Shown here one piece after another: positions 201-30,701 of a stretch of DNA of 64,000 nucleotides. The notes below the pieces were generated by a model that was given only the letters and a program-made list of their open reading frames with translations, was not told the DNA's origin and made no database searches. The stretch comes from Dehalococcoidia bacterium. GTDB lineage: Bacteria; Chloroflexota; Dehalococcoidia; UBA6926. The stretch covers positions 325,793-389,792 of the forward strand of contig OY762213.1 in NCBI GenBank assembly GCA_963665385.1. The letters run 5' to 3'. The stretch's first letter is position 1. Every line of letters begins with the position of its first letter. A program made the translations under genes and the position numbers.

Positions 201-257
201 CTCCGTCATTCCCGCTCCCCCCTCCGTCATTCCCGCGAAGGCGGGAATCTGAATCTC
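201..257. repeat. Interspersed hairpin repeat, family R1 (two copies, TCATTCCCGC...GCGGGAATC)
   Basis: ctccgtcattcccgc occurs twice; second copy forms 8-bp stem attcccgc/gcgggaat with GAAG loop; same element recurs at 17.6, 23.2, 23.7, 30.5 kb. Confidence 0.55.
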
Positions 258-390
258 ACTGCGCCAGCCATACACGCGCGCGAGTTCCTCCTTGACACCT
301 GTATAAAGTGATATAAACTAGTTTGTGTTGCAAACTAAAGCAGGGAATCGACAGGTGGGACTTACCCGAACAAGGGTAGAGGAGGACGCG

Positions 391-1023
391 ATGCAATCGG
401 CAGCAGGAGACGGACGAGAGCTTTCACCTCAACAGGGATGGGAAGATATCCACGCTACGATGGACCAGCTCCGCAGCTCCATGTACGTGGCCGGGACAGC
501 GACGATACTGCTTGTGTGGGGCGCAGTAATCTCGCTGGGCTACTTCGCGGAATATTCGTTCACGACGTTCCTTGAGGAAATGGCCGCCGACAGGCCCTGG
601 ATCAGGGCCCCGCTGTGGTTTGGGCTGGTGGCAGTGGGCATGGTCGCCAGCGCCATCATCGGCAGTCGGGCCGGGCAGAAGACCGGCGCGGGAGAGGCGG
701 CCAGATCCGCCGGCATCCGCACCTTCCTGTTCTGGCTCACCATCGGCATCGCCGCATTCGTGATGCCCGCCGCGCTCGGCCTCTGGGTGGAAGGCAACGC
801 CCAACAGATCGGCGGGGTGTCCATAGGCATCGCGATGCTCGGCTACATCCTCTTCGGAATCATGCACCGGCCCATCATCGCCGTCCTGGGCCTTGTATTC
901 CTCGCGGCGTACTTCATCCCCTACGCGCTGGAGGGCGATGCCGCTCTCCTCTACTCCGCCATCCTGACCTTGGCGACGGCCGCCGCAGGCTGGGCGCTCA
1001 TCCGCCGGAGCGACGTCCCGTGA
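391..1023 (+). CDS. Hypothetical polytopic membrane protein
   Basis: ORF with several hydrophobic helices; ATG at 391 preceded by GAGGAGGA SD; stop overlaps GTG start of downstream regulator (GTGA). Confidence 0.55.
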   Translation: MQSAAGDGRELSPQQGWEDIHATMDQLRSSMYVAGTATILLVWGAVISLGYFAEYSFTTFLEEMAADRPWIRAPLWFGLVAVGMVASAIIGSRAGQKTGAGEAARSAGIRTFLFWLTIGIAAFVMPAALGLWVEGNAQQIGGVSIGIAMLGYILFGIMHRPIIAVLGLVFLAAYFIPYALEGDAALLYSAILTLATAAAGWALIRRSDVP

Positions 1024-1198
1024 CGACAAACGGCGCCCCGGGCCTCGACGAGACGATCCCCCAACCAACGCGCTTGCGAATCCTGACCTTGGCGACGGCC
1101 ACCGCAGCCTGGGCGCTCATCCGCCGGAGTGACGTCCCGTGACGACAAACGACACCCCGGACCTCGACGAGATGATCCACCAACCGACGCGACTCCGG
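961..1198. repeat. 119-bp tandem duplication spanning membrane-protein 3' end / regulator 5' end
   Basis: 961-1079 and 1080-1198 are about 90% identical (atcctgaccttggcgacggcc...gacgtcccgtgacgacaaacg...). Confidence 0.8.
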
Positions 1199-1510
1199 AT
1201 CATGACGATGCTTGCCGCGCAGGGAGCCGATGACCGAGTCGCCTACGGCTACGTCCAGAAGGAATTGGCCCTGACCGGCGGAAACCTGACAATCCACCTG
1301 CGCAAACTCGAAGACGCGAGCTACGTCGCCATCACAAAAGACTTCATCGACGCGAAGCCCCGCACCTGGATCCAAACGACAGAGACAGGCCGCAACGCCT
1401 ACGCCCGCTACGTGCACAACCTCCGCCAAACCCTAAACCTACAACCCCCCCAACCCCGCCGGCAGACCTCTGGCCAAGAGACTGAGGAAAATCAGCCCAA
1501 ACTCTGGTGA
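1139..1510 (+). CDS. Winged-helix transcriptional regulator (HTH_34/ArsR-PadR-like wHTH)
   Basis: HQPTRLRIMTML...GYVQKELALTGGNLTIHLRKLEDASYVAI matches wHTH (helix-turn-helix plus wing) pattern; GTG start. Confidence 0.6.
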   Translation: MTTNDTPDLDEMIHQPTRLRIMTMLAAQGADDRVAYGYVQKELALTGGNLTIHLRKLEDASYVAITKDFIDAKPRTWIQTTETGRNAYARYVHNLRQTLNLQPPQPRRQTSGQETEENQPKLW

Positions 1511-1832
1511 TGTGGCGTCAAACCCACCCGCCGAACCAATCCCCCGTACCGCATCCTCGACCCACGCCAAATCCTTGCTCCTCTTCTTCCTGCTGCCTGC
1601 CTGCTGAGGAAATGGCTGCGATTGTGACAGCGTCAAATTGCAGGGGATCATTTGGTACCATGACAAAAGCCCCAACATCCCAGCGATGGACTCCTTTTAA
1701 TAAAGCCCCTTAAGTGCGGGCAGAAATTCAAGGAGCCATACTTGACAGGCACTCAGTCCCGATAATAGAATCGTCAAGGCCTTCGAGAGTAAGGTGCGGG
1801 ATCGCAGATTCACTTGTAAGTGAGGATATTTC

Positions 1833-4800
1833 ATGACACAGACGATAGTGCGGCCATGGAACCCAGTGCAGGTACTGGTTCTTGTTCTCGTAGGAGCATT
1901 GATTTCAGCGCTGGTGTTAGCCTTCGCTGTTCCGGCCATTGTGCAAGCGCAATCAAACGAAGCCATCGAGTACGCCGAGAACGGCAAAGACGCGGTGGCC
2001 ACCTTTACGGCCAACGACCCGGAGGGAGGCACGTCGATTACGTGGGGAATTGCGGGCGTGGCGCCGGCACCCGATCTTCTCAGCAGCATTAATGCTACTG
2101 ACAATGAGGACTCCGCTATCTTCACGATCGATGGGGACGGGACGCTTGAATTCGCGAACCCGCCTGACTACGAAACGCCCGGGGACGTGGGCACCAACAA
2201 CATCTACCAGGTGGTGGTGACGGCCACCGACGCTGCCACAAACGGGCTGACGGGCTTCCACGAAGTTACTGTCAAGGTCACGAACGTACCAGAGCAGGGT
2301 AAGGTGACCTGGACCGTCGCACCGGACGGCAGCACCGCCGAGTCGGTAACGCAGTTCGATGTCGGCGCACTCCTAACCGCCACCGCGACAGATGGCGACA
2401 TATCAGGGGCGACTAAGACTGTAAGCAATGCCATCTGGCGGTGGTACAGGTCGGCGGACGATACCTCTACGGGGACGTTGATAGAGGGCGCAGACGCCCA
2501 AGACAATACCTACACCACCACGCTCGATGACGCGGGCATGTACCTGCGGGCCGTGGCGCACTATGTCATCTCGGGTAACGTGGACCAGGAAACCGCCTCT
2601 TTGACCTCCGACTATCCCGTGTTGGCGGAACGGGTCGGGACCAACCAACTCGAGTTCGACCCGCTCACGGAGTCCAGGGAGGTTGCCGAGGGCGACGCGG
2701 GCAGGAACGTCGGCGCCCGGGTGACGGCGGAGGGCAACCACGGCGCGGTGTACTACACGCTAGGCGGCACCGACGTGACCAAGTTTGACATCGACGAGAA
2801 GACCGGCCAGATAACGACCATGGTGGACCTGGACTTCGAAGCGGCTGCGGGGGACGGTTCTGATAACTGCTCCGCAACGAACGCCTGCCAAGTCACCGTC
2901 ACGGCGAGAGACGCCTCCGGCGATGTAACCGACACGCCGGCGACCGTGAATATCAAGATAACGGACGTGGACGAGCCGCCGACATTCCCAGCAAGCGCAG
3001 TAACGGCAGTAACGGTGCCGGAGGGCCGGACAGACCTGTTCCACGCGTCGGACAGTGAGTTCAGTGAAACAGCGGAAACTAGCGTCACCTATACGGCCAC
3101 GGATCCGGAGACCCGAAACATTGTCTACACGCTGATGGGACTGGATTCGGCAAGGTTCAAGCTCAGCAACGCACAGGTCCTCTCCTTCAGGGCGAATCCT
3201 GACTTCGAGACTCCTACGGACAGGGACAGGGATAACGTGTACGAGGTGACCGTGCGGGCATCGGACGGCACGATGAACACCGACCGGGCGGTCAAAGTTA
3301 CCGTCATCGGCATCAACGAAGCCCCGGTTGTAACGGGCAGAGACAGCGTCAACTATACGGAGAACAGCGAGAGCGTGGTTGCCACCTTCACGGCCAACGA
3401 CCCGGAGGGAGGCACGTCGATTACGTGGGGAATTGCGGGCGTGGCGCCGGCACCCGATCTTCTCAGCAGCATTAATGCTACTGACAATGAGGACTCCGCT
3501 ATCTTCACGATCGATGGGGACGGGACGCTTGAATTCGCGAACCCGCCTGACTACGAAACGCCCGGGGACGTGGGCACCAACAACATCTACCAGGTGGTGG
3601 TGACGGCCACCGACGCTGCCACAAACGGGCTGACGGGCTTCCACGAAGTTACTGTCAAGGTCACGAACGTACCAGAGCAGGGTAAGGTGACCTGGACCGT
3701 CGCACCGGACGGCAGCACCGCCGAGTCGGTAACGCAGTTCGATGTCGGCGCACTCCTAACCGCCACCGCGACCGACGGCGACATAGCAGGTGGCACTAAG
3801 ACCGTGGTATCACCCGGCGCCACGAACATCGTATGGCGGTGGTTCAGAGGAGGCGCTGTCATCCAGGGCGAGGCAGGACTCACATACACCGTGGCTCTCG
3901 GCGACGTGGGCCAGCGCATCCGCGCTTCGGTGACATACCAGGTTGGGACAAGCACAGTCCAGGAAACCGCCTCTTTGACCTCCGACTATCCCGTGTTGGC
4001 GGAACGGGTCGGGACCAACCAACTCGAGTTCGACCCGCTCACGGAGTCCAGGGAGGTTGCCGAGGGCGACGCGGGCAGGAACGTCGGCGCCCGGGTGACG
4101 GCGGAGGGCAACCACGGCGCGGTGTACTACACGCTAGGCGGCACCGACGTGACCAAGTTTGACATCGACGAGAAGACCGGCCAGATAACGACCATGGTGG
4201 ACCTGGACTTCGAAGCGGCTGCGGGGGACGGTTCTGATAACTGCTCCGCAACGAACGCCTGCCAAGTCACCGTCACGGCGAGAGACGCCTCCGGCGATGT
4301 AACCGACACGCCGGCGACCGTGAATATCAAGATAACGGACGTGGACGAGCCGCCGACGTTCGATAGCGGGGCCGAGACGGTAACAATCGACGAAGGCGTG
4401 CAGATAGTAAGGGCCGACAGTAGCGGCGACGGTGTCTTCGACAGCAGCGACACTGCCAATCTCTACGTGGCGACGGACGAGGATGGACTCAACGTCAACC
4501 TATCCCTGTTGGGGCCGGACGCAGCCGACTTCAGCCTCAGTTCCGCTGGCGTCCTCTCCTTCGTGTCGAAGCCCGACTACGAGAATCCGGTGGACGTGAA
4601 CACAGACAACCTGTACGAGGTGACCGTGCGGGCCTCAGACGGCACGAAGCACGCCGACCGGAAGGTCAGAGTTACCGTGGAAGGCATCAACGAGGCGCCG
4701 GTGATCGCCCTCGTGCCTGCAAGCGGCCTGAGGGTGTCAGGAGACGACAGAGTGTCGGTGGCCGAGGGCACAACCGCAGTGACCAGCTACACGGCCAGTG

Positions 4801-5189
4801 GCCCGAACCAGGCGTCGGCCAGGTGGACGCTGTCGGGCACGGACGCCGGAGACTTCAGGATCGGCAGCGGCAGCGGCGTGCTCACGTTCGCGGCCACGCC
4901 GGACTTCGAGGCGCCTGCGGACGGCAACGGTGACAACGTGTACGAGGTGACCGTGACGGCCACTGACAGCGAGGGCGCCAGCGACGACATAGACGTGACG
5001 GTGACAGTCACGGACGTGGATGAGACGACGCCAAGCGATCCGTTGCTTGCCGAGTTCGATCCGAACGGTGACGGCAGGATCGAGGTGGCCGACATGCGGC
5101 GGGCAGTAGGCGACTTCTTCGGAGCTATTCCAACATTCTCCGAGGCTGACATGCGGAGGCTGGTAGGCATCTTCTTCACCCAGTCGTAG
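1833..5189 (+). CDS. Secreted cadherin-like repeat protein with C-terminal dockerin/EF-hand-like Ca-binding motif
   Basis: N-terminal signal peptide; repeated VTVTATD...VTDVDE(P/A)P cadherin-type modules; C-terminus DPNGDGRIEVADMRRAV resembles dockerin type I repeat; GAGGA SD. Confidence 0.7.
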   Translation: MTQTIVRPWNPVQVLVLVLVGALISALVLAFAVPAIVQAQSNEAIEYAENGKDAVATFTANDPEGGTSITWGIAGVAPAPDLLSSINATDNEDSAIFTIDGDGTLEFANPPDYETPGDVGTNNIYQVVVTATDAATNGLTGFHEVTVKVTNVPEQGKVTWTVAPDGSTAESVTQFDVGALLTATATDGDISGATKTVSNAIWRWYRSADDTSTGTLIEGADAQDNTYTTTLDDAGMYLRAVAHYVISGNVDQETASLTSDYPVLAERVGTNQLEFDPLTESREVAEGDAGRNVGARVTAEGNHGAVYYTLGGTDVTKFDIDEKTGQITTMVDLDFEAAAGDGSDNCSATNACQVTVTARDASGDVTDTPATVNIKITDVDEPPTFPASAVTAVTVPEGRTDLFHASDSEFSETAETSVTYTATDPETRNIVYTLMGLDSARFKLSNAQVLSFRANPDFETPTDRDRDNVYEVTVRASDGTMNTDRAVKVTVIGINEAPVVTGRDSVNYTENSESVVATFTANDPEGGTSITWGIAGVAPAPDLLSSINATDNEDSAIFTIDGDGTLEFANPPDYETPGDVGTNNIYQVVVTATDAATNGLTGFHEVTVKVTNVPEQGKVTWTVAPDGSTAESVTQFDVGALLTATATDGDIAGGTKTVVSPGATNIVWRWFRGGAVIQGEAGLTYTVALGDVGQRIRASVTYQVGTSTVQETASLTSDYPVLAERVGTNQLEFDPLTESREVAEGDAGRNVGARVTAEGNHGAVYYTLGGTDVTKFDIDEKTGQITTMVDLDFEAAAGDGSDNCSATNACQVTVTARDASGDVTDTPATVNIKITDVDEPPTFDSGAETVTIDEGVQIVRADSSGDGVFDSSDTANLYVATDEDGLNVNLSLLGPDAADFSLSSAGVLSFVSKPDYENPVDVNTDNLYEVTVRASDGTKHADRKVRVTVEGINEAPVIALVPASGLRVSGDDRVSVAEGTTAVTSYTASGPNQASARWTLSGTDAGDFRIGSGSGVLTFAATPDFEAPADGNGDNVYEVTVTATDSEGASDDIDVTVTVTDVDETTPSDPLLAEFDPNGDGRIEVADMRRAVGDFFGAIPTFSEADMRRLVGIFFTQS
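1998..4368. repeat. Intragenic direct repeat, 1383-bp period, mosaic near-identity
   Basis: 1998-2395 matches 3381-3778 and 2563-2990 matches 3943-4368 almost base-for-base, separated by diverged blocks. Confidence 0.85.
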
Positions 5190-5210
5190 AGAAGCGCAAG
5201 AAAAAAGCCG

Positions 5211-5255
5211 CGGCGGGGCTGACGACGGAATAGACGTCCGCCCCGCCGTGTTGCA
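5211..5255 (+). terminator. Possible intrinsic terminator after cadherin-like gene
   Basis: gcggcggggc...gccccgccg inverted repeat followed by tgttg; weak T-tract. Confidence 0.3.
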
Positions 5256-5285
5256 TGAGGCAACTTAGGAGAACGTAGGACCGCC

Positions 5286-7730
5286 ATGAAGAGATCGCTG
5301 AAGATTGCTGTGGTGACCGCGATAGTAGCTGTCTTGGGAACGCTGGCGCTGATACAAGTGGCGGCGCAGCAACCCACAACGACGAGAGAAATCAGCCCCG
5401 CAACGCTGCCGGCGAGTGGAGGTGAGGCAACCGTGACCATCACGATCGCCGGTTCCTACGGCGGAGTTGGAGTGGTGGTGGAGACCCTGCCGGACGGATA
5501 CTCCTACGTTGATGGATCGGGGAGCATAACGCCGACAGTGAGCGGGCAGGATCTCACCTTCGCCCTGGTGGCCGATACGTCGTTCTCCTACAAGGTGATG
5601 GTCGCAGCAGATGTGGAAGCATCAGACGCCCTGATGGGCGTGCTGACATACGGGCTTACTACGAAGAGCAATGTGCCCGTGACGGGTCATACAAGCGTGA
5701 CGGTGGAACCGTCGCAGCAGCCGACAGGCGTCACAGTGACGAGGGGGATTACTCCCGCGGCGGTGGCGGCTGGCGAAGAGGCAACCGTGACCATCACGAT
5801 CGCCGGTTCCTACGGCGGAGTTGGAGTGGTGGTGGAGACCCTGCCAACCGGGTTCTCCTATGTAGCAGGATCGGGGACCATAACGCCGACAGTGAGTGGG
5901 CAGGATCTCACCTTCGCCCTGGTGGCCGATACATCGTTCTCCTATAAGGTGACGGCGTCAGACTCGGAAGGCCAACACGCCTTGGCCGGCGTGCTGACAT
6001 ACGGGCTTATGACGAAGACCAATGTGCCCGTGACGGGCGATGCCAGCGTGACAGTGCAGGCGGCACAGCCGACCGGCGTCACGGCAGCGCGGGCCATCAA
6101 CCCCGCCGCGCTTCCGGCAGGCGGAGAGGCAACCGTGACCGTCACGATTACAGGCGACTACGGCGGAGTTGGGGTGGTGGTGGAGACCCTGCCAACTGGG
6201 TTCTCCTATGTATCAGGATCGGGGACCATAACGCCGACAGTGAGCGGGCAGGATCTCACCTTCGCCTTGGTGGCCGATACATCGTTCTCCTATAAGGTGA
6301 CGGCGCCGGCTGCGGTAAGCCAGCACGTGTTTGCCGGCGAGCTGATATACGGGCTTACTACGAAGACCAATGTGCCCGTGACAGGTGATACGGCTGTGAC
6401 GGGGACGACGGCGTCCCTCACCGTATCGAGGTCCCTCAGCCCTTCTAATGTGCCGCAGAGCGGCGGCCAAGTGACGGTGAGAATCAACATCGTCGGCGAT
6501 TACGGCGGAGTTGGGGTGGTGGTGGAAACCCTGCCAAATGGGTTCTCCTATGTATCCGGATCGGGGAGCATAGCGCCGGAAGTGAACGGGCAGGATCTCA
6601 CCTTCGCCCTGGTGGCCGATACATCGTTCTCCTATAAGGTGGCGGCGCCGGCCTCGGTAGGCCGACACTCGTTTGCCGGCGAGCTGAGATACGGGATTCA
6701 GCAACCTAGATCCGTCCTCTCCGTTACAGGCGATAGGCGCGTGACAGTGGAGGCGCCGCGGACACCGTCTGACCCAGGTGGTCAGCCTCAGGCTAACCGT
6801 TCCCCGGTATTCGAGGAAGGTCGCAGCGCGACGCGCTCGATCGACGAGAATTCCGAGCCCGGGACGGCCGTCGGAGACCCGGTCACCGCCAGGGACCGTG
6901 ACGACGACACACTGATGTACAGCCTCTCTGGGGCAGATGCGGCGCTCTTCAACATCAACGAGAGCAACGGCCAAATTACGACTGCCCAGGGTACGACCCT
7001 GGACTACGAGGCCAGGAACTCCTATGACGTCACCGTGCGGGTCACTGACCCAACCGAAAGAGAAGACGACATCGACATCGCCATCAGGGTGACCAACGTT
7101 GACGAGGCTGGCGCGGTTACACTGTCGCCACAGCAGCCGATGGTCGACACGGAACTGATGGCGACCCTGACGGACCCTGACGGGTCGTTGTCGAGTCTCA
7201 GCTGGGCGTGGGAACGCTCCGCAGACAACACGACCTGGGCCGCCATAGGGGGAGCGGGGGCGAGCGCCTACACGCCGGTGGAGGCGGACGAAGGCCACTA
7301 CCTGAGGGCGACGGTGGCGTACGCCGACGGCCACGGCGGGAACAAGAGCGCGATGATGGCGTTCGCCGACCTGGTGCCGACTACAGCCACACCGGAGCCC
7401 ACAGCCACACCGGAGCCCACGGCCACACCGGAGCCCACGGCCACACCGAGGCCCACGGCCACACCGAGGCCCACAGCCACACCGAGGCCCACAGCCACAC
7501 CGGAGCCCACAGCCATACCGGAGCCCACAGCCATACCGGAGCCCACAGCCACACCGGAGCCCACAGCCATACCGGAGCCCACGGCTGCACCGGAGCCTAC
7601 GGCCACGGTTGGTCCGCCCGTGGAGCCTGAAGATGACGGCGGGTTCCCGCTATGGGCGATTGCCCTGATCGTCATCGGAGTGTTGGTAGCGGGAGGTCTC
7701 GTCTTCTACCTGATCCGGTTGAGGTCGTGA
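5286..7730 (+). CDS. Secreted surface protein: four ~110-aa repeats, cadherin-like module, (TATPEP)n linker, C-terminal TM anchor
   Basis: Signal peptide; repeats of ATVTITIAGSYGGVGVVVETLP...SFSYKV; cadherin-like VTVRVTDP...NVDEAG; C-terminal hydrophobic helix + RLRS tail (sortase/exosortase-like sorting signal); AGGAG SD. Confidence 0.7.
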   Translation: MKRSLKIAVVTAIVAVLGTLALIQVAAQQPTTTREISPATLPASGGEATVTITIAGSYGGVGVVVETLPDGYSYVDGSGSITPTVSGQDLTFALVADTSFSYKVMVAADVEASDALMGVLTYGLTTKSNVPVTGHTSVTVEPSQQPTGVTVTRGITPAAVAAGEEATVTITIAGSYGGVGVVVETLPTGFSYVAGSGTITPTVSGQDLTFALVADTSFSYKVTASDSEGQHALAGVLTYGLMTKTNVPVTGDASVTVQAAQPTGVTAARAINPAALPAGGEATVTVTITGDYGGVGVVVETLPTGFSYVSGSGTITPTVSGQDLTFALVADTSFSYKVTAPAAVSQHVFAGELIYGLTTKTNVPVTGDTAVTGTTASLTVSRSLSPSNVPQSGGQVTVRINIVGDYGGVGVVVETLPNGFSYVSGSGSIAPEVNGQDLTFALVADTSFSYKVAAPASVGRHSFAGELRYGIQQPRSVLSVTGDRRVTVEAPRTPSDPGGQPQANRSPVFEEGRSATRSIDENSEPGTAVGDPVTARDRDDDTLMYSLSGADAALFNINESNGQITTAQGTTLDYEARNSYDVTVRVTDPTEREDDIDIAIRVTNVDEAGAVTLSPQQPMVDTELMATLTDPDGSLSSLSWAWERSADNTTWAAIGGAGASAYTPVEADEGHYLRATVAYADGHGGNKSAMMAFADLVPTTATPEPTATPEPTATPEPTATPRPTATPRPTATPRPTATPEPTAIPEPTAIPEPTATPEPTAIPEPTAAPEPTATVGPPVEPEDDGGFPLWAIALIVIGVLVAGGLVFYLIRLRS
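7381..7606. repeat. 15-bp tandem repeat (about 15 copies) encoding T-A-T/I-P-E/R-P
   Basis: acagccacaccggagccc unit repeated with point variants (gag/agg, aca/ata). Confidence 0.9.
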
Positions 7731-22271: not shown

Positions 22272-22305
22272 GCCGTTCACACGAACGGACGAAAGGAGCA
22301 GGCAA

Positions 22306-23160
22306 ATGATCCCGTATATCGCGGTAGTCAAGCAATACGAGCGCCTGGCGGTTTTCACGCTCGGCAAGTACTCCGGCATGAGACAGCCCGGACTCAATCT
22401 CCTTGTGTGGCCATTCCAGGCCACGCAAAAGGTCGATCTCCGCGAATTCGTTATCGATATCCCTCGCCAGACCAACATCACCCTCGACAACGCCCCCATA
22501 GACATCGACTTCCTCGTCTACATGCGGGTGCAGGAATCCGACGCCGAACGAGCCGTTCTGGAGGTCGTCGACTTCCGCTCCGCCGTCGTCGGCATTGCCA
22601 CCACCAACCTGAGAGCCGTCATCGGTGAGATGAACCTTGACGATGTCCTCTCACAGCGAGAGCGCATCAACGAATCCCTGCGCACCAAGCTTGACGAGGT
22701 CACGGAACGCTGGGGCATCAAGGTCACCCAGGTTGAGATTCGCGAGGTCGAGCCCAACCGTGACATCCAGGAGGCCATGAACCGCCAGATGTCCGCGGAG
22801 AGAATCCGTCGCGCAGCCGTCACGGAGGCAGAGGGAACTCGACAGGCCGCAATCACCGTCGCCGAGGGCGAAAAGCAGTCCGCGATCCTCAGGGCCGAGG
22901 GTGAACGGCAGGCCGAGATTCTGAATGCCGAGGGCGATCAACAGGCCGCCATCCTCCGAGCTGACGGCTTCGCCACCGCCCTTGACCGCATTTCAGGCGT
23001 CGCGCGCGGCATAGACACCAACACCCTCAGCCTGCAGTACCTGGAGACTCTCAAGGACGTGGGCGCAGCGCCGTCGACCAAGTTCATCTTCCCGATGGAG
23101 TTCACCAGCCTCCTCCGCCCGTTCACAAACATGGTGTCACCCAACGACGACAACGAATAG
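22306..23160 (+). CDS. SPFH/Band-7 (stomatin/prohibitin-like) protein
   Basis: SPFH domain with coiled-coil EAEG/RAEG repeat region; canonical NfeD-SPFH operon. Confidence 0.85.
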   Translation: MIPYIAVVKQYERLAVFTLGKYSGMRQPGLNLLVWPFQATQKVDLREFVIDIPRQTNITLDNAPIDIDFLVYMRVQESDAERAVLEVVDFRSAVVGIATTNLRAVIGEMNLDDVLSQRERINESLRTKLDEVTERWGIKVTQVEIREVEPNRDIQEAMNRQMSAERIRRAAVTEAEGTRQAAITVAEGEKQSAILRAEGERQAEILNAEGDQQAAILRADGFATALDRISGVARGIDTNTLSLQYLETLKDVGAAPSTKFIFPMEFTSLLRPFTNMVSPNDDNE

Positions 23161-23200
23161 CCTGCTAGCACCTGAGCCACCGTCATACGGGACATACAGT

Positions 23201-23310
23201 CGTCATTTCCGCGAAAGCATGCCCGCGTCCCCATTCACCCTGAGCCTGTCGAAGGGTGCTCCAATGGCATCCTGAGCCTTCCTATGTCATTCTGAGCGCA
23301 GCGAAGAATC
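23201..23310. repeat. Cluster of hairpin repeats R1(degenerate)-R2-R2(partial)-R3
   Basis: cattcaccctgagcctgtcgaagggtg (6-bp stem caccct/agggtg) and gtcattctgagcgcagcgaagaatc. Confidence 0.6.
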
Positions 23311-23331
23311 ACATACCAACGGGAGCAGCAA

Positions 23332-23661
23332 GTGCCGGCATTCGATGATTTCACAGGAACCGTGCGGGGGACGCCCGTCGTCACCCGCGTCATGGAGAGC
23401 ATGATGATAGAGGCCGCGCAGGCCCTGCGAGACATCTGCCGCACCTTCCAGGCGACGGGCGAGCCGATGGGCGGTCACCACCTCCCCGCCGGCGGCTACA
23501 TGGGTGAAATGATCGTCCGCGCGCTCATCGAGGCCGATCTCATCGAGGAAGTCGAGGGAGAAGAGCGCGGCTTCATGCGACGCTACAAGCCCACCAAGAA
23601 CGGCGAAAAGACCTACGCCAAGCTAGACAAAGAAGACGCCTTCTCCCGCCGCGCAACCTAG
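23332..23661 (+). CDS. Hypothetical protein flanked by repeat elements
   Basis: GTG start with GGGAG SD; no recognisable motif. Confidence 0.3.
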   Translation: MPAFDDFTGTVRGTPVVTRVMESMMIEAAQALRDICRTFQATGEPMGGHHLPAGGYMGEMIVRALIEADLIEEVEGEERGFMRRYKPTKNGEKTYAKLDKEDAFSRRAT

Positions 23662-23664
23662 ACC

Positions 23665-23688
23665 GTCATTCCCGCGAAAGCGGGAATC
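23665..23688. repeat. R1 hairpin repeat copy
   Basis: attcccgcgaaagcgggaat perfect 8-bp stem. Confidence 0.6.
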
Positions 23689-23771
23689 CAGAGACGCCTA
23701 AGACTCCGATGCCGGAACGCGGCGAACCAACGTATTCAATAACCCAATACGAATCGCGAACCGAGAAAAAA

Positions 23772-23845
23772 TCGGGGCGCCCGGATTTGAACCGGGGACC
23801 TCCGCGTCCCGAACGCGGCGCGCTGCCAAACTGCGCTACGCCCCG
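23772..23845 (-). tRNA. tRNA-Pro (anticodon CGG), CCA not encoded
   Basis: CGGGGCGTAGCGCAGTTTGGCAGCGCG CCGCG TTCGGGA CGCGG ... CCCGG TTCAAAT CCGGG CGCCCCG A. Confidence 0.85.
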
Positions 23846-23957
23846 ACCGACAAACAAACCGCGGGCAGCAAAACCGCCCGCTCGCTTAAGAGTATACGGG
23901 TATCCGCCCCACAAAGAATCCCCTCCCTCACAGAGGGGGGAGGGTTAGGGTGGGGGG

Positions 23958-24704
23958 CTAATCGGTCAAGATAGATCGGGCAATTGGTTCGAGCACGCGC
24001 TGGACTTCCTCATCAAGCTCGTCCTGCGGGTAGTGGACGGGTTGCTTGGCCGCGCCGGGCCCGCGGCCGGGCCATCGTTTGGCTAGAGCTTTTGCAAGGT
24101 GAGGGAATTCCTTAAAGTCAAGTAGCCTACACCGACTCTGGGCATCTATATTCTGAAGCCAACCTTGGAGTGAAATACGGAGCTTTAGAGATCTCAATGC
24201 AGAGCGGGTATGGATTTCACGGGCATTGGTCAGACTAGAACCAAATGTGAATTGGGCGTCTTTCAATTCCTGATCCTGTAACCAGAGGCCACGGGCGAAC
24301 ACATCCCGTTCAATTCGTTCGGGGTCGGATTCTCGTGCCGGAATAAGTTCTTGCCAACTGGAGTTTGTCAGGCCCGAATTCCGTATACCTAACCGACATT
24401 TGGCCCCAAGGGCTTGCCAGAGAAACTTCTGCTCGCCTGGCTCGAGATTCGTGGATTTGAGCAAGTGTGAAATCGACAGTGCCCGCCCCAATGACCACCG
24501 CCGTACGAATGCTAACTCTGCTTGAGATTCAGCCTCGACGGAGATGACGAGTTCCAGTGCATTGTCCAGCATGTCGTCGATTTCACGGTCAAGATCCTCG
24601 GCAATGGCTCGGTGCTCCTCTTCTCCGAACCGGTAACGGCGTGTTGTGCGCACGCGATCATCGTGACTACCAGAATCAGATTCTGACCAGAGCAAGACCG
24701 GCAT
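23958..24704 (-). CDS. Hypothetical protein, third gene of HARE-HTH/GHKL operon (translationally coupled)
   Basis: ATGA start/stop overlap with upstream ATPase gene; 248 aa, no recognisable motif. Confidence 0.5.
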   Translation of the reverse strand: MPVLLWSESDSGSHDDRVRTTRRYRFGEEEHRAIAEDLDREIDDMLDNALELVISVEAESQAELAFVRRWSLGRALSISHLLKSTNLEPGEQKFLWQALGAKCRLGIRNSGLTNSSWQELIPARESDPERIERDVFARGLWLQDQELKDAQFTFGSSLTNAREIHTRSALRSLKLRISLQGWLQNIDAQSRCRLLDFKEFPHLAKALAKRWPGRGPGAAKQPVHYPQDELDEEVQRVLEPIARSILTD

Positions 24705-27253
24705 CAGTGACTCTCCTCATACATGCGCATCATGTGCGCGGCGCAGTTCCGAAAATCCTCCACAAAGTCTATGTACGGCACCTCAGACTGGTTCCCGCCA
24801 GCCCCCTCCAGCAATTCCATCATCTCCACAAAGCGCCCCCACTTTTCGCTGTCAACCCCCGGCGGCTCACTTGTGCAGAGATCGTCCAGACGAGTTCTGT
24901 CATGGTCTTTCCAAGCTGGCTCTAGTGCCCATTGGATAAGCGCTTCGCAGGTGATTTCAAGCAAAAAAGAGTTGCGCCTTTCGGTTCCATTGGCTGCATC
25001 TGCCTCCATCAATTCCCGGTTTGTGGCATATCGCTCAGGGAACTGGAGCACTGTCTCTCCGTCGATTTCCTTGAGCTGCCAACGAGGTAGCCTCTCGTCT
25101 GGCCGTTGGTCTAGTCGGAACGGTAATCCCCCTTGATTCGGCGGATCAACTTCAATGTGGAGCATGTAAGACGCCGCAGCGGAATCAAGGCTACCATCGG
25201 TATCAAAGAGATCAGCGTTTAACTGATGTCGACCTGGCTCAACTGGGATAGCGATTGCGTTCTCGTCAGGCAAGGGTAACTTATCCGGTGCCACGAAGAT
25301 AATGTCACCCATCCAGACTGCGTGCTGATCGGACGTGTCTCCTTCTGGTGTACCACGGAGAGAACGTGGCTCTCCATCGGCAAGCATTGGGGTTGCCTCC
25401 GAAAGACTGGCATTCAGAGAAACGTCTATAACTCTAGGCGTATTGTTGTGAGCGTTTATCTGCGCCGCCACCCTTTCACCATAGTTAATGCGTTCCCTGC
25501 CCGAGGCGGATCGTGTCTGGTTTTCGACTGAGATGGATAATGTGAGTGGATCACGCTCAGGGTTCTGCGGGTCTTGATGCACGTAAATGGAACGAGAAGC
25601 GCGTGCAACCTGTCGCCCATCATGCTGAACGCGCGCCGTCAGCTTCCATTTGCCCTGCAGAGCAAGCTGAAGCTGATCCGGTCTAGCGGCATTGCGGACT
25701 ATCTGGAGATTACCGACCTTCAAATTCCCTTCTCTGTTATAGAAGCTAATCGCCTCATCTGTTCGTACTGAGACCCTTACCGATTCATCCACGTGCTGAG
25801 CCTCTAGAGAGACGGTCACATTTGCGGGGAAAGACGAAGAACTTGTGACAAGCACCTGAATATTCTCCAGTAGCTGTCCCCAATCGACGCGTGCTACTGT
25901 CGAATCAGGGAAAGACAAGGAGAGTGAGCAGTTCCAGGACTCCGTTGGCTGCTTCCCGCTGGTTCCGAACCATTGCAGAATTTCGCGGGCAATGTCCGTC
26001 TGTAGTGCTGGCGTAGGTGGACGCGCCGGTTCCTGCATCCACCCCAAGTCCTTCGCGAAGGCTTCGACAGCGCTCTCGACTTGTCTGTAGATTGCCTGCA
26101 CAAGACCTTGTTTCCTGTCAAACTTGTGATGCTGTGGCGACTCAAGATTACGAAGTTCCTTTTCCAACGATTGATCGAATTCCACGAATCCCCGGAACCC
26201 GGACCGCCTGCCTGGGGGAATAAAGCCCGACAACTCTCTATCCCCGCTACCTATAGTTGTTATCCACTGGTGACCGCGTAGAAGCTGAACGCCTTCAAAT
26301 TGCGCATCATCACTCTCCGCATCCGTGGATTGCAGCCGTTCGTCATGTATGAGGACGATTCGCTTTATCCGCAATCCGTCCCCAAGGTCTACATTCTCAG
26401 TTGATCGCACTTCGACACCTTTAGGCTGTGAGCCTATCCAGGGTTCGTCTTGCCACCATGATGGGACGGTAACTGTATCCTCGCGCCGTGTCTCCTCATC
26501 AATCACTCTAATCTCTAGCGCACCGGTCTGGACGGCGCGCCACCAGCAGCGCCGCAGCCACTGCACCAGTTCTCCATTCTTGACGGCCGTCACCGCCTCC
26601 TCAGACAGGTAAGGGACGGCAACACGGGTGCCGACTTTTTTGAGCGGCTCAAGTCCGAGGTCTATCTCTATTCCGGTTTCGTCCGTGAATTGACCACTGA
26701 CCAATTCCTCTGCTTCGGAATCTTGCCAGGGGGGTGACTGAATTGTGTCTACAGGATTAGCGTTGCGAACACCCAGCCTATATAGGCCGTCGGCAAGAAG
26801 CGTGTCGTACAACATCATCATACGGCGTCGTCCGGGTGCAGAAGGTGGCGAGGAATGATACAGGAAGGCCGACTTACCCTGTCCCCTCGATCCTCGAGCT
26901 GAATCATCTGACTTCTTGGTAAAGCCCTGACCCTCGAATGCAGCCCAATTCTCATCCGTTTCCAATTCGTAACCCCGCTCACTGAGTTCAGCCTGAGAAA
27001 GGGCAGGGCCGCGTAGGCCGTAAGTGCCGGAATCCGTCACTGTCAAGAGGTGACGTGTTCCCTCGTATCGTGACTCCTGTTTTCGAAGCCGATACTCCAC
27101 TCTGACTATCGGACTAGCGTGCTTGGCGTCCAAAGAGTTTTGTACCGGCTCCTGGGCAAGCGCCCGAATTGGGCCATTGTCGCCGTAACTCTGGATGATC
27201 GATTGGACTTGTTGCACCATATCGCTTGGCGCAGGTTGATAGTTTGAAGCCAT
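24704..27253 (-). CDS. MORC/MutL-like GHKL (Bergerat-fold) ATPase, large multidomain protein
   Basis: N-box EPVQNSLDAK, G1 box VTDSGTYGL, G2 box GSRGQGKSAF (MORC-type GxGxKSA); about 600-aa uncharacterised C-terminal region; start MASNYQ at 27253 with GAGAGGGGAGGG SD (longer ORF to 27391 would overlap upstream gene). Confidence 0.65.
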   Translation of the reverse strand: MASNYQPAPSDMVQQVQSIIQSYGDNGPIRALAQEPVQNSLDAKHASPIVRVEYRLRKQESRYEGTRHLLTVTDSGTYGLRGPALSQAELSERGYELETDENWAAFEGQGFTKKSDDSARGSRGQGKSAFLYHSSPPSAPGRRRMMMLYDTLLADGLYRLGVRNANPVDTIQSPPWQDSEAEELVSGQFTDETGIEIDLGLEPLKKVGTRVAVPYLSEEAVTAVKNGELVQWLRRCWWRAVQTGALEIRVIDEETRREDTVTVPSWWQDEPWIGSQPKGVEVRSTENVDLGDGLRIKRIVLIHDERLQSTDAESDDAQFEGVQLLRGHQWITTIGSGDRELSGFIPPGRRSGFRGFVEFDQSLEKELRNLESPQHHKFDRKQGLVQAIYRQVESAVEAFAKDLGWMQEPARPPTPALQTDIAREILQWFGTSGKQPTESWNCSLSLSFPDSTVARVDWGQLLENIQVLVTSSSSFPANVTVSLEAQHVDESVRVSVRTDEAISFYNREGNLKVGNLQIVRNAARPDQLQLALQGKWKLTARVQHDGRQVARASRSIYVHQDPQNPERDPLTLSISVENQTRSASGRERINYGERVAAQINAHNNTPRVIDVSLNASLSEATPMLADGEPRSLRGTPEGDTSDQHAVWMGDIIFVAPDKLPLPDENAIAIPVEPGRHQLNADLFDTDGSLDSAAASYMLHIEVDPPNQGGLPFRLDQRPDERLPRWQLKEIDGETVLQFPERYATNRELMEADAANGTERRNSFLLEITCEALIQWALEPAWKDHDRTRLDDLCTSEPPGVDSEKWGRFVEMMELLEGAGGNQSEVPYIDFVEDFRNCAAHMMRMYEESH

Positions 27254-27272
27254 GGCTCGAGCCCTCCCCTCT

Positions 27273-27755
27273 CTAGCCGCCCCGCGTCCGGCGCCGCGCC
27301 GGCCGTTGCCGCGCCCCCACATTTCGGGCATTTGGAAAGTCCTTACGAAGACCATAGAAGCCCTTGGACGTAGGCCGCACGAAGCGTTCATCTAGTACGA
27401 GTCGCGCCACCAGCGTGGCAGGAGGATCGTTGCCGTTGATTTGTCCACCGAGCCGCTGCACTTCCTTCGCTAGGTCCTTGTAATACATCGGCTTGTTCGG
27501 CTGCTGCAGCAACACCTTCTCCGCTAGATCGGTTATCGATTCTCCATCGGAGCGATGTTCAGCTGGACTGCTTGCTGTTGAACTGTCCGTCGACGTTTCA
27601 ACATGCTCATCGGCAAGTAGACCGTCCACGTGGCGGAGCCGTTCAATGATTTTGGCCAAGCGTTGTTCTGATTCGGCAATCTTTTCTCGGACCTCTTCCA
27701 ACTCCGCCCGCAGGCTTGTTCGTTCCGTCTGTAACATTCGCTCTAACACGGTCAT
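27273..27755 (-). CDS. Coiled-coil + HARE-HTH domain protein
   Basis: N-terminal coiled coil; C-terminus MYYKDLAKEV...ATLVARLVLDERFVRPTSKGFYGLRKDF matches HARE-HTH / RNAP delta N-domain pattern (DGRF...WGLR); GGAGGGG SD. Confidence 0.55.
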   Translation of the reverse strand: MTVLERMLQTERTSLRAELEEVREKIAESEQRLAKIIERLRHVDGLLADEHVETSTDSSTASSPAEHRSDGESITDLAEKVLLQQPNKPMYYKDLAKEVQRLGGQINGNDPPATLVARLVLDERFVRPTSKGFYGLRKDFPNARNVGARQRPARRRTRGG

Positions 27756-27773
27756 GTTATACCCCTCCAGAAT

Positions 27774-27804
27774 CTGTTATGCAGAAAAATAACACGCATA
27801 ACAG
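27774..27804. promoter_or_regulatory. Putative operator: inverted repeat CTGTTATGC-N13-GCATAACAG upstream of HARE-HTH operon
   Basis: Perfect 9-bp arms immediately upstream of SD in an AT-rich promoter region. Confidence 0.4.
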
Positions 27805-28143
27805 GAACGTGTCAAGATAATAACACCATACAAGCACGGTCTATGTATTACGGTGCGACCATCAGAATCTGCGGGCGATCCGTTGAATCATGTTTGGGAT
27901 ACGGTGCCGAGTGGCCCGAACTAGTGGCGCATTACGCCGCCGTGCCCTGCCGTGTTGTAGATGTCGCGAACTGCGAGGCCGATATCGTCCGGTCAACCCT
28001 CAGTCGTGCGGAAGTACGAGTTGACGTCACGGGTGTCCAGGATCTGCGCCGCCTCCGCGCCGAACAGAACCGTAGAAACGAACCGGCGCGCGCGTCTCCA
28101 CGTGCCGCCCATCGGCCGAGACATAGCGTCGGTCACGTCGCCC

Positions 28144-28449
28144 TCAGTCGACGTACCCGCGGGCGCGGAGCGCATTGTTGACGTTGACATCGCCCACCCA
28201 CACCTCTGCCTTCAGCCTGCCGAGACTGTCCGATTCCGTGGCCTCATAAAACACTATTGTATCCGCCACCAGCTCGGACAGGTATGCATGCGCCTGCGCG
28301 TACCGATCAGGATTCGTCGGCAGCGTAATGCCCGCCAATACCAGCCGCTCAGCGTCCTCCATGTAAATCACGCCGCCCTCGATGACGTCCGCAACCCGAC
28401 CCCACCTGCGCGGCCGCGGAGAATCGCCTGGTTCACCGGTCGAGGTCAT
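28144..28449 (-). CDS. Hypothetical protein (weak thermonuclease/SNase-like pattern)
   Basis: VIEGGVIYMEDAERLVLAGITLPT loosely resembles v.DGDT...vRLiGIDaPE of SNase-like proteins. Confidence 0.3.
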   Translation of the reverse strand: MTSTGEPGDSPRPRRWGRVADVIEGGVIYMEDAERLVLAGITLPTNPDRYAQAHAYLSELVADTIVFYEATESDSLGRLKAEVWVGDVNVNNALRARGYVD

Positions 28450-28467
28450 GCCTGAAGTGACGCCGGC

Positions 28468-29037
28468 CTACGCCGCAGGGGCGACGACTATGACGAGGGT
28501 CAATAATGCAAGCGCCCGGCCAATGAGTGTCCCCACGATTACCGCCACCGCCGCCAGCGGCATGCTGCACGACAACGACTCCCGAGTCGCAATCATCATG
28601 GCCGTCGCGATCCAGATCGTAGTGGCGAGCGCGGCAGCCCCGCCGATAACCGGCAGAGGGACAAGAATCATGAGCAGGGCGGGCGACGCCGTGAAGCCGA
28701 CGCTTCGGATGAACTGCAAAAACGTGCCGCCCAGGAAACCCGACGCGGACGTTCCTGCAATCACGGACACGATCATGTACGAGAACAGCGCCGAGAGCGT
28801 CCACCCCAGACCCGTGAAGATGAGAGAGGAGATGAACACGGTTGAGGCCGTCTGCCCCCCGTCTCCATAGAGCGTCGCAACCGACGCCACAAGGCCATGG
28901 ATGACTGACACGAGGATGACCACAAAGACCGCCTGTCGGATCGCCCCCGGGTCTCGCCGCAACTCGTCGTACAGCTGCGAATCACCCAGGGCCGAGCGCA
29001 TCATGCGCACGTGGAAAGCGTCAGGCGCACCTAGCAT
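28468..29037 (-). CDS. Yip1-domain membrane protein
   Basis: Five TM helices with N-terminal cytosolic segment typical of YIP1 family. Confidence 0.5.
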   Translation of the reverse strand: MLGAPDAFHVRMMRSALGDSQLYDELRRDPGAIRQAVFVVILVSVIHGLVASVATLYGDGGQTASTVFISSLIFTGLGWTLSALFSYMIVSVIAGTSASGFLGGTFLQFIRSVGFTASPALLMILVPLPVIGGAAALATTIWIATAMMIATRESLSCSMPLAAVAVIVGTLIGRALALLTLVIVVAPAA

Positions 29038-29063
29038 CGTTCCTCACTCCTTCCATCCCCGCT

Positions 29064-29109
29064 CGCCCTGAGCGTAGTCGAATGGTCTCCCTGAGCCTGT
29101 CGAAGGGCC
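29064..29109. repeat. Two R2 repeat copies (one degenerate)
   Basis: ccctgagcctgtcgaagggcc. Confidence 0.5.
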
Positions 29110-29184
29110 CCACCCGCCAAAACCGATAACGTACCTTAGAGTATAGGAACGAGGCCGAACGAGTCGCAGGAGGGCATCGCGCCG

Positions 29185-30447
29185 ATGAGCACAAATGATG
29201 TTGAAGTGCTGCGTGGAGAGATTATCTCCATCGGCACGGAGATCCTGCTTGGCGCGCTGGTAGACACCAACGCCAATTACCTCGCGTCCCAACTCCCAGG
29301 CATTGGCATCGGCAACTACCGTGTCACGACCGTCGGTGACAACAAGGACCGCCTCGCCCGTGTCTTTGAAGAAGCGTGGAGTCGCTCGGACGTCGTCGTC
29401 GCCACGGGCGGCCTCGGTCCTACGGAGGATGACGTCACGCGCGAAGCCATCGCCCAATTCCTCGGTGAAGAGTTGTATTCCGACGCCACGCTTGAGAAAG
29501 AGTTGAGAGAGTTCTTTGATCGGCGCGGCATCGCCATGGCGGAGCGCAACCTCAAGCAGACCATGCTCATCCCCTCCTCACAGCCCCTGCCAAACCCACG
29601 CGGCACCGCGCCAGGCTGGTGGGTGCAAAAGGACAAAAAAATCATCATCGTCATGCCGGGCGTCCCGCGTGAGATGTACGGCATGTGGGAGGAGCAGGCT
29701 TTGCCGCGCCTCCGCCTCCAACTCATGGGCAATGACGCCGTCATCCACTCCCGCACCATCAAGACCTTCGGTCTCAGCGAGGCGAGCGTCGATGAACGAC
29801 TCGGCGAGCTGCTGCGCGGCCTCAACCCCACCATCGGTGTCTATGCGAAGTCGGACGGTATTCATATCCGCCTCTCCGCCCGCGCCTCGAGCGAACTGGA
29901 TGCGACACAACTCATCACCCCGGTCGAGGACGAAGTCAAAGACCGCCTCGCGACCCACCTTTGGGGGCAGGACGACGACACCCTTGAGGGCGTTATCCAG
30001 CGCGTCTATACCGAGCGCGGCCTGTCAGTCGCCACCATGGAATCCTGCACGGGCGGCAACCTTGCCAACATCCTCACTGACGCCCCCGGCGCGTCAGCCT
30101 ACTTCCGCGCCGCCTACGTCACCTACACCAATGAGATGAAAATCGCCATGGGCGTCCCTGCCGAGATCATCGAGAATCACGGCGCGGTCTCCGGAGAATG
30201 CGCCATCGCCATGGCAGACGCCGCCCGCGAGCGATCCGGGGCGTCCATCGGCGTCGGCATAACGGGCGTCGCCGGGCCCGGTGAGCTGGAGGGCAAGCCT
30301 GTCGGCCTCGCCTACATCGGCATCTCCGACGCAAACGACCACAAGATGCGAGAAGGACGCTACCCCGCCCAGCGCCTCGACTTCAAACTCCGCGTCGCCC
30401 GCACCGCCATGTTCGAACTCCGCGGCTGGGCCCTCGCCCGCGACTAA
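29185..30447 (+). CDS. cinA: CinA (competence/damage-inducible protein; MoCF-like N-domain + PncC-type NMN deamidase C-domain)
   Basis: N-terminal IISIGTEILLGALVDTNANYLA; C-terminal CinA domain ESCTGGNLANILTD. Confidence 0.85.
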   Translation: MSTNDVEVLRGEIISIGTEILLGALVDTNANYLASQLPGIGIGNYRVTTVGDNKDRLARVFEEAWSRSDVVVATGGLGPTEDDVTREAIAQFLGEELYSDATLEKELREFFDRRGIAMAERNLKQTMLIPSSQPLPNPRGTAPGWWVQKDKKIIIVMPGVPREMYGMWEEQALPRLRLQLMGNDAVIHSRTIKTFGLSEASVDERLGELLRGLNPTIGVYAKSDGIHIRLSARASSELDATQLITPVEDEVKDRLATHLWGQDDDTLEGVIQRVYTERGLSVATMESCTGGNLANILTDAPGASAYFRAAYVTYTNEMKIAMGVPAEIIENHGAVSGECAIAMADAARERSGASIGVGITGVAGPGELEGKPVGLAYIGISDANDHKMREGRYPAQRLDFKLRVARTAMFELRGWALARD

Positions 30448-30458
30448 TCATGCCTTCC

Positions 30459-30701
30459 GTCGTTCCCGTGCTTGACACGGGAACCCAGCCCCCCGTTCAT
30501 CCTGAGCCTGTCGAAGGGTGACCCTCTCCCGTCACCCCCGCCCCCTCTTCGTCATTCCCGCGCAGGCGGGAATCTGAATCACGGTATGCAGCCAACCTCC
30601 GTGACGCTCCCCCCTCATTCCGGCGAATGCCGGAATCCATCGGAACTCCCCGCATGGTGGACTGGCCTAGCGGTCTGTCATTCTGAGCGCAGCGAAGAAT
30701 C
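30459..30701. repeat. Dense cluster of five hairpin repeats (R1 variant, R2, R1, R1', R3)
   Basis: gttcccgtg-cttga-cacgggaac; catcctgagcctgtcgaagggtg; cattcccgcgcaggcgggaatc; cattccggcgaatgccggaatc; gtcattctgagcgcagcgaagaatcc. Confidence 0.7.

Follow-up and report, generated by a model that had tools for sequence, protein, structure and literature searches.

How do short hairpin repeats reach the spaces between bacterial genes, and why should all the copies on one stretch of chromosome point the same way? The question is raised by a 64-kb stretch of DNA from a Dehalococcoidia bacterium (contig OY762213.1, positions 325,793 to 389,792; hereafter the window), which contains 13 full and about seven partial hairpin units in six intergenic regions, spanning positions 204-30703. 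The units, 25-30 nt in size, consist of a 5' tag (CGTC, TGTC, CCTC or CGTT), a hairpin and a short tail, and lie on the + strand throughout. They are repeats of the REP (repetitive extragenic palindromic) class and belong to the CGTC-tagged superfamily, of which four sub-types occur here together: R1, a form with a 9-bp stem, R2 and R3. Tagged REP elements as such are a known kind; new are the family formed by R2 and R3, the one-way mosaics and the strand polarity. The best-supported mechanism for their spread is a strand-specific process on single-stranded DNA at the replication fork, driven in trans.

An initial annotation of the window had described R1, R2 and R3 as interspersed hairpin repeats, and every position that it gave for them is confirmed. 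The counts lie far above expectation: the R1 pattern (up to three mismatches) has five sites against 0.33 expected, a number reached in none of 100 shuffles, the R2 core occurs three times exactly (0.03 expected), and so does R3 (0.00 expected). All 13 full units are intergenic and fall within 31 kb, with no copy past that point; among intergenic regions exceeding 90 nt, six of the 14 up to 31 kb hold units, as against none of the 12 beyond (hypergeometric p ~0.013, computed by hand). A covariance model of the R3 family, run unfiltered over both strands of the window, recovered the three R3 copies at 44-46 bits and found no genuine copy on the - strand. A 19-bit hit at 40022-40052 (- strand) was rejected as a repeat: it corresponds to the DnaK codons for GILNVNAKD, and conserved coding sequence can thus resemble the repeats by chance. 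Nor are the repeats an artefact of assembly: the pair of units at 29060-29110 is found again in L121, a metagenome contig of independent origin and 97% identity, and related genomes carry orthologous units.

Architecture of the tagged hairpins

R1 follows the layout CGTC-ATTCCCGC-GAAR-GCGGGAAT-CCA/CTG, with a stem of 8 bp and a loop of 4 nt, and the 9-bp form the layout CGTC-GTTCCCGTG-CTTGA-CACGGGAAC-CCA, with a loop of 5 nt. The published superfamily is defined by the tag CGTC (variants TGTC and CCTC), stems of 8-9 bp from AT, loops of 4-5 nt and a CCA-like tail (PMC3733652); within it, R1 is CGTC-1 and the 9-bp form CGTC-3. The peptide VIAGLDPAIH, published for CGTC-3 of R. palustris, back-translates to the identical hairpin with a CTTGA loop. 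Standard nearest-neighbour folding supports both R1 (-8.9 kcal/mol, z = -5.0) and the CGTC-3 unit (-10.4 kcal/mol, z = -4.2). In the window, R1 carries the tag CGTC four times and CCTC once, the CGTC-3 unit CGTC, and R3 TGTC three times; R2 has a further variant, CGTT or CATT. A CCA tail is found on six of the nine full R1, CGTC-3 and R3 units of the window, the remaining three ending in CTG or CAC, and across phyla the R3 tail is looser (C, then TC, CC or CA). A reading of the units as tRNA-like minihelices with a CCA tail was dropped, R3 tails across phyla being mostly CTC or CCC. The resemblance to REPs and to bacterial interspersed mosaic elements (BIMEs) proposed in the initial annotation is thus borne out feature by feature in the fit to the CGTC-tagged superfamily, and the mosaic clusters are like the intergenic mosaics of Neisseria.

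R2 and R3, which had been listed as separate families, prove to be two sub-types of a single structural family with the common core CTGAGC-loop-CGAAG, set in the layout Y-GTC tag, outer stem, CTGAGC, loop, CGAAG, outer stem. The family appears to be undescribed: the R2 and R3 strings gave no relevant match in searchable paper text, a search that sequences printed only in figures escape, and the type would be uncatalogued in the 2013 survey of the superfamily because its pipeline discarded repeats with more than one stem mismatch (PMC3733652). Among 37 distinct variants of the R3 family, gathered from many genomes, 95.8% of cells are paired and five of the seven pairs show changes on both sides, which none of 500 shuffles equalled. 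The tandem G.A/A.G pair is invariant, even where the neighbouring T-A has become C-G, and the loops are GCA, GAA, GGA or GTA, that is, GNA only. Moreover, the R3 apex GCGCAGC and the R1 apexes GCGAAAGC, GCGAAGGC and GCGAATGC are exact mini-hairpin DNA motifs. Mini-hairpins of the sequence GCGNAGC or GCGNNAGC are extremely stable, with a Tm of 70-76 C, and work only with GNA triloops (Hirao review, PMC13037366). This tie to a hairpin motif that is both DNA-specific and extremely stable argues that the repeats work as DNA rather than RNA. On inspection, CUGA...GAA could be read neither as a hammerhead nor as a kink-turn: the hammerhead NGA is missing from the core, and so is a 3-nt bulge.

Distribution, strand polarity and proposed mode of action

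The exact R3 25-mer was sought in species-representative genomes, where all counts are lower bounds. It occurs at at least 120 loci in at least 13 phyla: Chloroflexota, Acidobacteriota, Verrucomicrobiota, Planctomycetota, Nitrospirota, Nitrospinota, Bacteroidota (including Chlorobiales), Bacillota, Pseudomonadota, Desulfobacterota, Armatimonadota, Omnitrophota and Binatota are among its hosts. It is also present in plasmids of Calothrix and Granulicella, and viral contigs carry R3 (35 contigs), R1 (at least 120) and R2 (34). The sequences flanking R3 are unrelated between phyla, with short extensions common to some lineages, and R1, R2 and R3 co-occur in Dehalococcoidia loci only. Of 129 R3 copies outside the window, 37 (29%) have an inverted partner with the tags outside, four have one with the tags inside and six have a direct neighbour. 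Pairing in other phyla therefore agrees with the published rule of inverted pairs. The window breaks this rule: it contains no inverted pair or doublet (REPIN type), and all of its units stand head-to-tail on the + strand.

The polarity of the units was judged by the GC skew of the locus. Unpaired R3 units have their tagged strand on the C-rich strand at 51 of 60 loci with |skew| > 0.05 (51:9, p = 3e-8), and at 39 of 43 loci with |skew| > 0.08; units in inverted pairs show no strand bias (8:7). Skew at R3 is -0.038 inside genes on the same strand, -0.095 inside genes on the opposite strand and -0.045 between genes, and once the coding-strand effect is removed the bias stands at 33/44, or 25/28 at |s| > 0.04. 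R2 in viral contigs leans the same way (14/18). In the window the strand effect is -0.058 and the + strand, on which all units lie, is the C-rich one. The same holds for two related loci, L312 (skew -0.113), whose eight full units and nine heads lie without exception on +, and L317 (skew -0.082), with all of its units on +. We read the polarity of R3 as reflecting replication direction, for which GC skew is a proxy only.

On this basis we give a little better than an even chance to the view that the tagged REP units act as DNA and are copied in trans by a strand-specific process at the replication fork. One strand would fold into an unusually stable hairpin, whose tip is the mini-hairpin motif, and the units would be copied to new intergenic sites, and kept uniform, by a process linked to the fork. 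The enzyme would be encoded elsewhere in the genome and would most plausibly be an HUH/Y1 nuclease of the type known as REP-associated tyrosine transposase (RAYT). Units would then accumulate head-to-tail in dispensable intergenic DNA beside accessory genes, and the resulting long-lived mosaics would be inherited as blocks, with gain and loss of units mainly at the 5' edge. Such copying would explain why the units on this stretch share one direction regardless of the direction of the genes.

Gene direction itself bears on whether the units act as DNA or RNA. Among the 86 copies that could be classified out of the 129, R3 points with its neighbouring genes in 25 cases and against them in 18, and lies between convergent genes in 21 and divergent genes in 22. 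Orientation is thus unrelated to gene direction, and this, together with the lack of a T-run after any unit, is why the units would seem to act as DNA; it also speaks against the suggestion, made in the initial annotation, that they are terminators. Elements transcribed into hairpins that terminate, insulate or stabilise mRNAs are in our judgement distinctly unlikely, even though Di Nocera et al. found REPs predominantly downstream of genes (PMC3733652), an R1 of the window directly follows the stop codon of the open reading frame (ORF) called ORF109, the CGTC-3 unit follows that of CinA, and R3 stands 22-65 nt 5' of two start codons. A scan for terminators gave ten candidates in 17000-31500, none of them at a unit, two of the six repeat sites lie between divergent genes, and the cluster at 17596-17772 is antisense to both of its neighbours. 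No Rfam family matches either: only two tRNAs reach the gathering threshold in the window, and two clusters, scanned permissively, yielded no match with E below 1. The orientation bias tracks strand composition and not transcription.

Several observations weigh against copying at the fork. R1 in viral contigs has no skew bias (46/86). GC skew is only a proxy for replication direction, and a check by gene orientation gave an uninformative 51%. The tagged G.A strand, if it is the active one, lies on the strand opposite to the precedent of the IS200/IS605 insertion sequences (IS). R2 and R3 score only about -2 kcal/mol (z ~0) in nearest-neighbour folding, so that the case for their stability rests on covariation and the published mini-hairpin data; we infer that the score is weak because the folding model treats the tandem G.A as an ordinary internal loop. 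Finally, a search of the 64-kb window and of 2.48 Mb surrounding 311 loci with repeats for a RAYT or Y1 gene, a check that the initial annotation had suggested, gave nothing but one 58-aa fragment. It relied on tblastn with the E. coli RAYT, whose sequence agrees with PDB 4ER8, and on a profile made from the homologues of that protein; as these were all from Enterobacteriaceae, the profile is narrow and may miss distant RAYTs. The 2013 survey by Di Nocera, De Gregorio and Rocco likewise found no transposase adjacent to CGTC repeats (PMC3733652). Our negative result agrees with theirs and sits uneasily with the correlation between REPs and RAYTs in Neisseria. The genes that recur beside R3 belong only to large generic families (Gfo/Idh/MocA, ABC transporters, histidine kinases).

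The 58-aa fragment (positions 2326-2499 of L015, an Acidobacteriota metagenome-assembled genome, or MAG) resembles a RAYT C-terminus (..LHNNHVRRGWV..DWPWSS), lacks the catalytic tyrosine and lies 3.8 kb from R3.

R2 and R3 could also be a nearly pan-bacterial, undescribed branch that is read as single-stranded DNA by a widely conserved fork-associated factor and not by a private transposase. The features read would be the Y-GTC tag, the tandem sheared G.A pair and the GNA mini-hairpin tip. This would explain an exact 25-mer in at least 13 phyla and in phages, the lack of a linked transposase and the consistent direction relative to replication; we regard it as an unlikely proposal.

Clusters and their inheritance

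The first site holds a partial R1 head at 204-215 (tag CGTC and 5' arm ATTCCCGC, no 3' arm), in tandem, with a period of 21 nt, with a full R1 at 225-255 (CGTC-ATTCCCGC-GAAG-GCGGGAAT-CTG(AATC)), the unit folded above. The same pattern of heads is seen in L312. Such arrays, in which 5' half-units repeat in tandem about every 20 nt, occur in the window at 204-228 and in L312 at 11295-11358 and 16977-17060, and also in L033, L084, L106 and L127; each half-unit is a C-rich leader, a tag and a 5' arm, and the arrays stand invariably 5' of a full unit. Slippage at a stalled hairpin, or else abortive strand transfer, may have produced them. Counts of 5' and 3' half-units proved too noisy to compare, and a model of nested insertion was dropped, no orphan 3' arms being found downstream.

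The second site, 17596-17772, begins with an R1 (17596-17622) that has one C.A stem mismatch and a CCA tail and lies between the start codon and the promoter of fabI, antisense to fabI. It is followed at 17673-17719 by a degenerate R1-like hairpin CCCGC-GTAG-GCGGG (17683-17696) and a hairpin GCGCCC-GCA-GGGCGC (17705-17719), in a block of about 38 nt that is missing from L001, a Dehalococcoidia MAG chromosome. At 17745-17772 an R3 (TGTC-ATTCTGAGC-GCA-GCGAAGAAT-CCA; 44 bits) closes the cluster. The third site, 23170-23312, comprises the partial heads ACCTGAGCC and CCGTCATAC and a truncated R1, CGTCATTTCCGCGAAAGCA, at 23170-23219 (including half-units at 23170-23188 and 23201-23219), an R2 at 23232-23261 (CATT-CACCCTGAGC-CTGT-CGAAGGGTG), a truncated R2/R3 head, CATCCTGAGCC, at 23268-23278, and an R3 at 23285-23312, which stands 22 nt 5' of the GTG start of the conserved ORF109 and has an orthologue in L313. 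At the fourth site an R1 with a GAAA loop and a CCA tail (23664-23690) lies immediately 3' of the ORF109 stop codon; L312 has an orthologous copy, and L313 one that has decayed. Around ORF109 the R1 after the stop codon is kept in three genomes and the R3 before the start codon in two.

At the fifth site, between a divergent 189-aa gene and CinA, a degenerate R2-like unit (29060-29086), six substitutions away from its counterpart in L121, adjoins an R2 core, CCCTGAGCCTGTCGAAGGG (29085-29110). The R2 pair upstream of CinA is common to the window and L121; L312 has an R1 here, and L314, L316 and L317 have nothing. The sixth site, 30458-30703, contains the CGTC-3 unit (30458-30487), whose CTTGA loop is that of the published R. 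palustris repeat, an R2 (30494-30523; CGTT-CATCCTGAGC-CTGT-CGAAGGGTG-ACC), a partial head, CGTCACCCCC (30530-30539), an R1 with a GCAG loop (30550-30580), an R1 variant (30613-30639; CCTC-ATTCCGGC-GAAT-GCCGGAAT-CCA) with a compensatory change from C-G to G-C in the stem, and an R3 (30676-30703), 65 nt 5' of an orphan gene at 30768-31571. Both R1 units and the R3 have orthologues in L312, L315 and L317, identical in the case of the first R1.

The clusters at 17596-17772, 23170-23312 and 30458-30703 each combine two to four repeat types. The initial annotation, which had overlooked the partial 5' half-units, the degenerate unit at 29060-29086 and the two hairpins at 17683-17696 and 17705-17719, saw in them a fixed order of R1, R2 and R3. 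What survives of this is that R3 comes last in all three mixed clusters; the cluster at 30458 runs CGTC-3, R2, R1, R1, R3, and the relative L008 has R2, R3, R1. Its placement of the repeats at the edges of low-GC genes applies to three of the six sites and fails at the other three, the ORF at 23332 having a normal GC content of 0.64.

Related genomes bear on the history of these clusters. The named CinA homologues are annotated as Dehalococcoidia or Chloroflexota, which together with the synteny to L001 points to a host of the class Dehalococcoidia; neither the exact CinA protein nor the protein P0122 had a database record, and a metagenome scan for CinA relatives gave a single close contig; L312 has its eight full units in 21 kb. 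The block 3' of CinA (R1, spacer, R1 variant, R3 and a homologous orphan gene) is common to the window, L312, L315 and L317. Orthologous units are identical at 24/24 and 25/25 positions, with spacers about 70% identical. At the 5' edge of this block the window alone has CGTC-3 and R2 in addition, and L312 has two additional half-units in tandem. The R3 of L313 is a variant whose inner stem is longer; it has an inverted partner, and an rve-type IS comes next. In L314 and L316, CinA adjoins PFK with gaps of 68 and 75 nt, with neither repeats nor gene. Clusters are thus inherited as blocks, units are conserved while spacers drift, single lineages gain units, and empty sites exist.

Different families at one intergenic region in different lineages, empty sites, and identical units amid drifting spacers argue for mobility as well as maintenance of the units. 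These observations also bear on the possibility that the units are inert relics of an ancient burst of hairpins, now immobile and merely inherited, with the strand bias arising from more frequent deletion (e.g. by hairpin cleavage or slippage) of the copies that have their very stable strand on the lagging-strand template. Vertical inheritance as blocks, decayed copies (29060-29086 and in L313), the many truncated heads, the failure to find a transposase near the sampled loci and the extinction of the CGTC mobilising elements proposed by Di Nocera et al. (PMC3733652) all fit this. Yet sister lineages with about 88% identical CinA have gained different families at one intergenic site, and units that stay 100% identical while their spacers drift, like an exact 25-mer that persists across phyla, need ongoing copying, gene conversion or strong constraint; we therefore hold the relic account to be improbable.

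The dRS3 repeats of Neisseria are a target for filamentous prophage and IS110-type elements. Hairpins recognised by site-specific recombinases or insertion sequences might likewise turn into hot spots for foreign genes, and the initial annotation had indeed seen the repeats as marking insertion boundaries. This idea is borne out in part. Positions 13980-17586 of the window are 78% identical to, and syntenic with, L001, and synteny stops at the R3 of the 17596-17772 cluster. This R3, 5' of the fabI promoter, has an identical copy at the same position in L001, with flanks that align poorly and unrelated genes beyond; the 267-aa genes adjoining R3 in the window and in L001 are unrelated to each other. 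The slot between CinA and PFK is variable, being empty in two relatives and holding in L313 the rve-type IS beside the R3 pair. L317 has a DDE transposase about 175 nt from an R1 head, and all three R3 copies of the window adjoin genes without a Pfam match. The 30458-30703 cluster, however, has been inherited together with its neighbour gene in four genomes, so that the cargo is not different each time and the repeats may simply collect in dispensable DNA, and half of the sites lie between ordinary genes. As a rival account docking is very doubtful, but it could operate alongside copying at the fork rather than instead of it. That the units are miniature inverted-repeat transposable elements (MITEs), i.e. 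deletion derivatives of an IS with terminal inverted repeats, as the initial annotation also considered, is scarcely conceivable: small, interspersed and non-coding they are, but a unit is a single hairpin of only 25-30 nt, with no terminal inverted repeats around an internal segment, no target-site duplication, unrelated flanks and no related transposase found.

Some features beside the repeats deserve mention. In L001 (5130-6236), immediately ahead of the conserved R3, about 650 bp of inserted DNA is flanked by the two copies of a duplicated segment of about 240 bp (5' end of fabI and promoter) and contains a 135-aa ORF and part of the 520-aa gene of the window. The latter (17795-19357, GC 0.51) had been labelled an HNH gene, for which Pfam gives no confirmation and no HNH match, and none of the genes adjoining R3 (17795-19357, 23332-23661 and 30768-31571) has a Pfam or PADLOC match. 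Beside the tRNA-Pro(CGG) at 23771-23846 lies a low-GC block (23958-27755, GC 0.54-0.57) that encodes proteins of 248, 895 and 160 aa without Pfam matches; it is kept in L314 and L317, L312 and L313 have a Type ISP restriction enzyme in its position, and the whole resembles the variable slots of defence islands. At the position of the window's tRNA-Pro, L313 has four tandem repeats of about 103 nt (3100-3400), which have the motif ccggaacgcgg in common with the sequence beside the window tRNA and may be remnants of an attachment site. Further off, two very large cadherin-domain proteins with internal duplications (1833-7730) include two 300-nt stretches of 100% identity (2585-2884 and 3959-4258) and an array of 18-nt repeats (7347-7652). 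Two leucine-rich-repeat proteins (8809-10989) are made of 72-nt (24-aa) tandem repeats, and two winged-helix (HTH_34) paralogues (1139-1510 and 8305-8760), 7.2 kb apart, have 264 nt at 95% identity.

Comparison with known repeat systems

The spread of CGTC-type REPs has been an open question since 2013, because no enzyme has been linked to them. It is made testable by a strand polarity confined to unpaired units, and by relatives in which sites are filled, differently filled or empty. The R2/R3 family extends tagged REPs to Chloroflexota and many further phyla. There is a practical side as well: spurious peptides are translated from the 25-mers, which can thereby suggest homology between phyla where there is none, and annotators gain by recognising them.

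The closest counterpart is the CGTC-tagged superfamily itself, with which the window units have in common the tag, the 8/9-bp stems starting with AT, the 4/5-nt loops, the CTTGA loop of the 9-bp form, the CCA-like tail, the intergenic position and the lack of an adjoining transposase. It was published, however, from five phyla, Chloroflexota not among them (PMC3733652), and its copies are mainly inverted pairs with the tags outside, head-to-tail copies being 'negligible' and clusters rare, whereas the window units all stand head-to-tail in mixed clusters. R2 and R3 also depart from the stem and loop rule, with a stem of nine positions including the tandem G.A and a loop of 3-5 nt. The apexes of R3 and R1, and the restriction of R3 variants to GNA triloops, are those of mini-hairpin DNA; this motif is familiar from biophysics and from the priming sites of phages and plasmids (PMC13037366), and is not known to have been described as the core of a genome-wide repeat family.

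Transposition by the Y1 enzymes of the IS200/IS605 family is coupled to the replication fork, and its 'peel and paste' mechanism resembles our case in its strand-specific hairpin ends and in an orientation tied to replication direction (PMC5027513). These elements, however, are autonomous and carry tnpA, and their active strand lies on the lagging-strand template, as opposed to the tagged R3 strand on the C-rich strand (PMC5027513). The dRS3/REPIN repeats of Neisseria contain the identical 21-mer ATTCCCGCGCAGGCGGGAATC, found at 30554-30574 in the first R1 of the sixth site, and their units likewise lie in mosaic intergenic regions interleaved with other repeats. This 21-mer has 241 copies in N. 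meningitidis, is its REP master sequence and was tied to a Group 2 RAYT by Bertels and Rainey (bioRxiv 10.1101/2021.07.10.451892). Unlike the window, which has no doublets and in which no RAYT is seen, Neisseria, of a distant phylum, has inverted doublets (REPINs) tied to that RAYT. The REPs and BIMEs of E. coli, finally, have the tag GTAG and not CGTC, BIMEs alternate in orientation, and the E. coli RAYT gene is flanked by REPs of its own; they are nevertheless, like ours, short tagged hairpins in intergenic mosaics, and their TnpA-REP (RAYT, PDB 4ER8) is the proposed model for the recognition of single strands by an HUH/Y1 enzyme.

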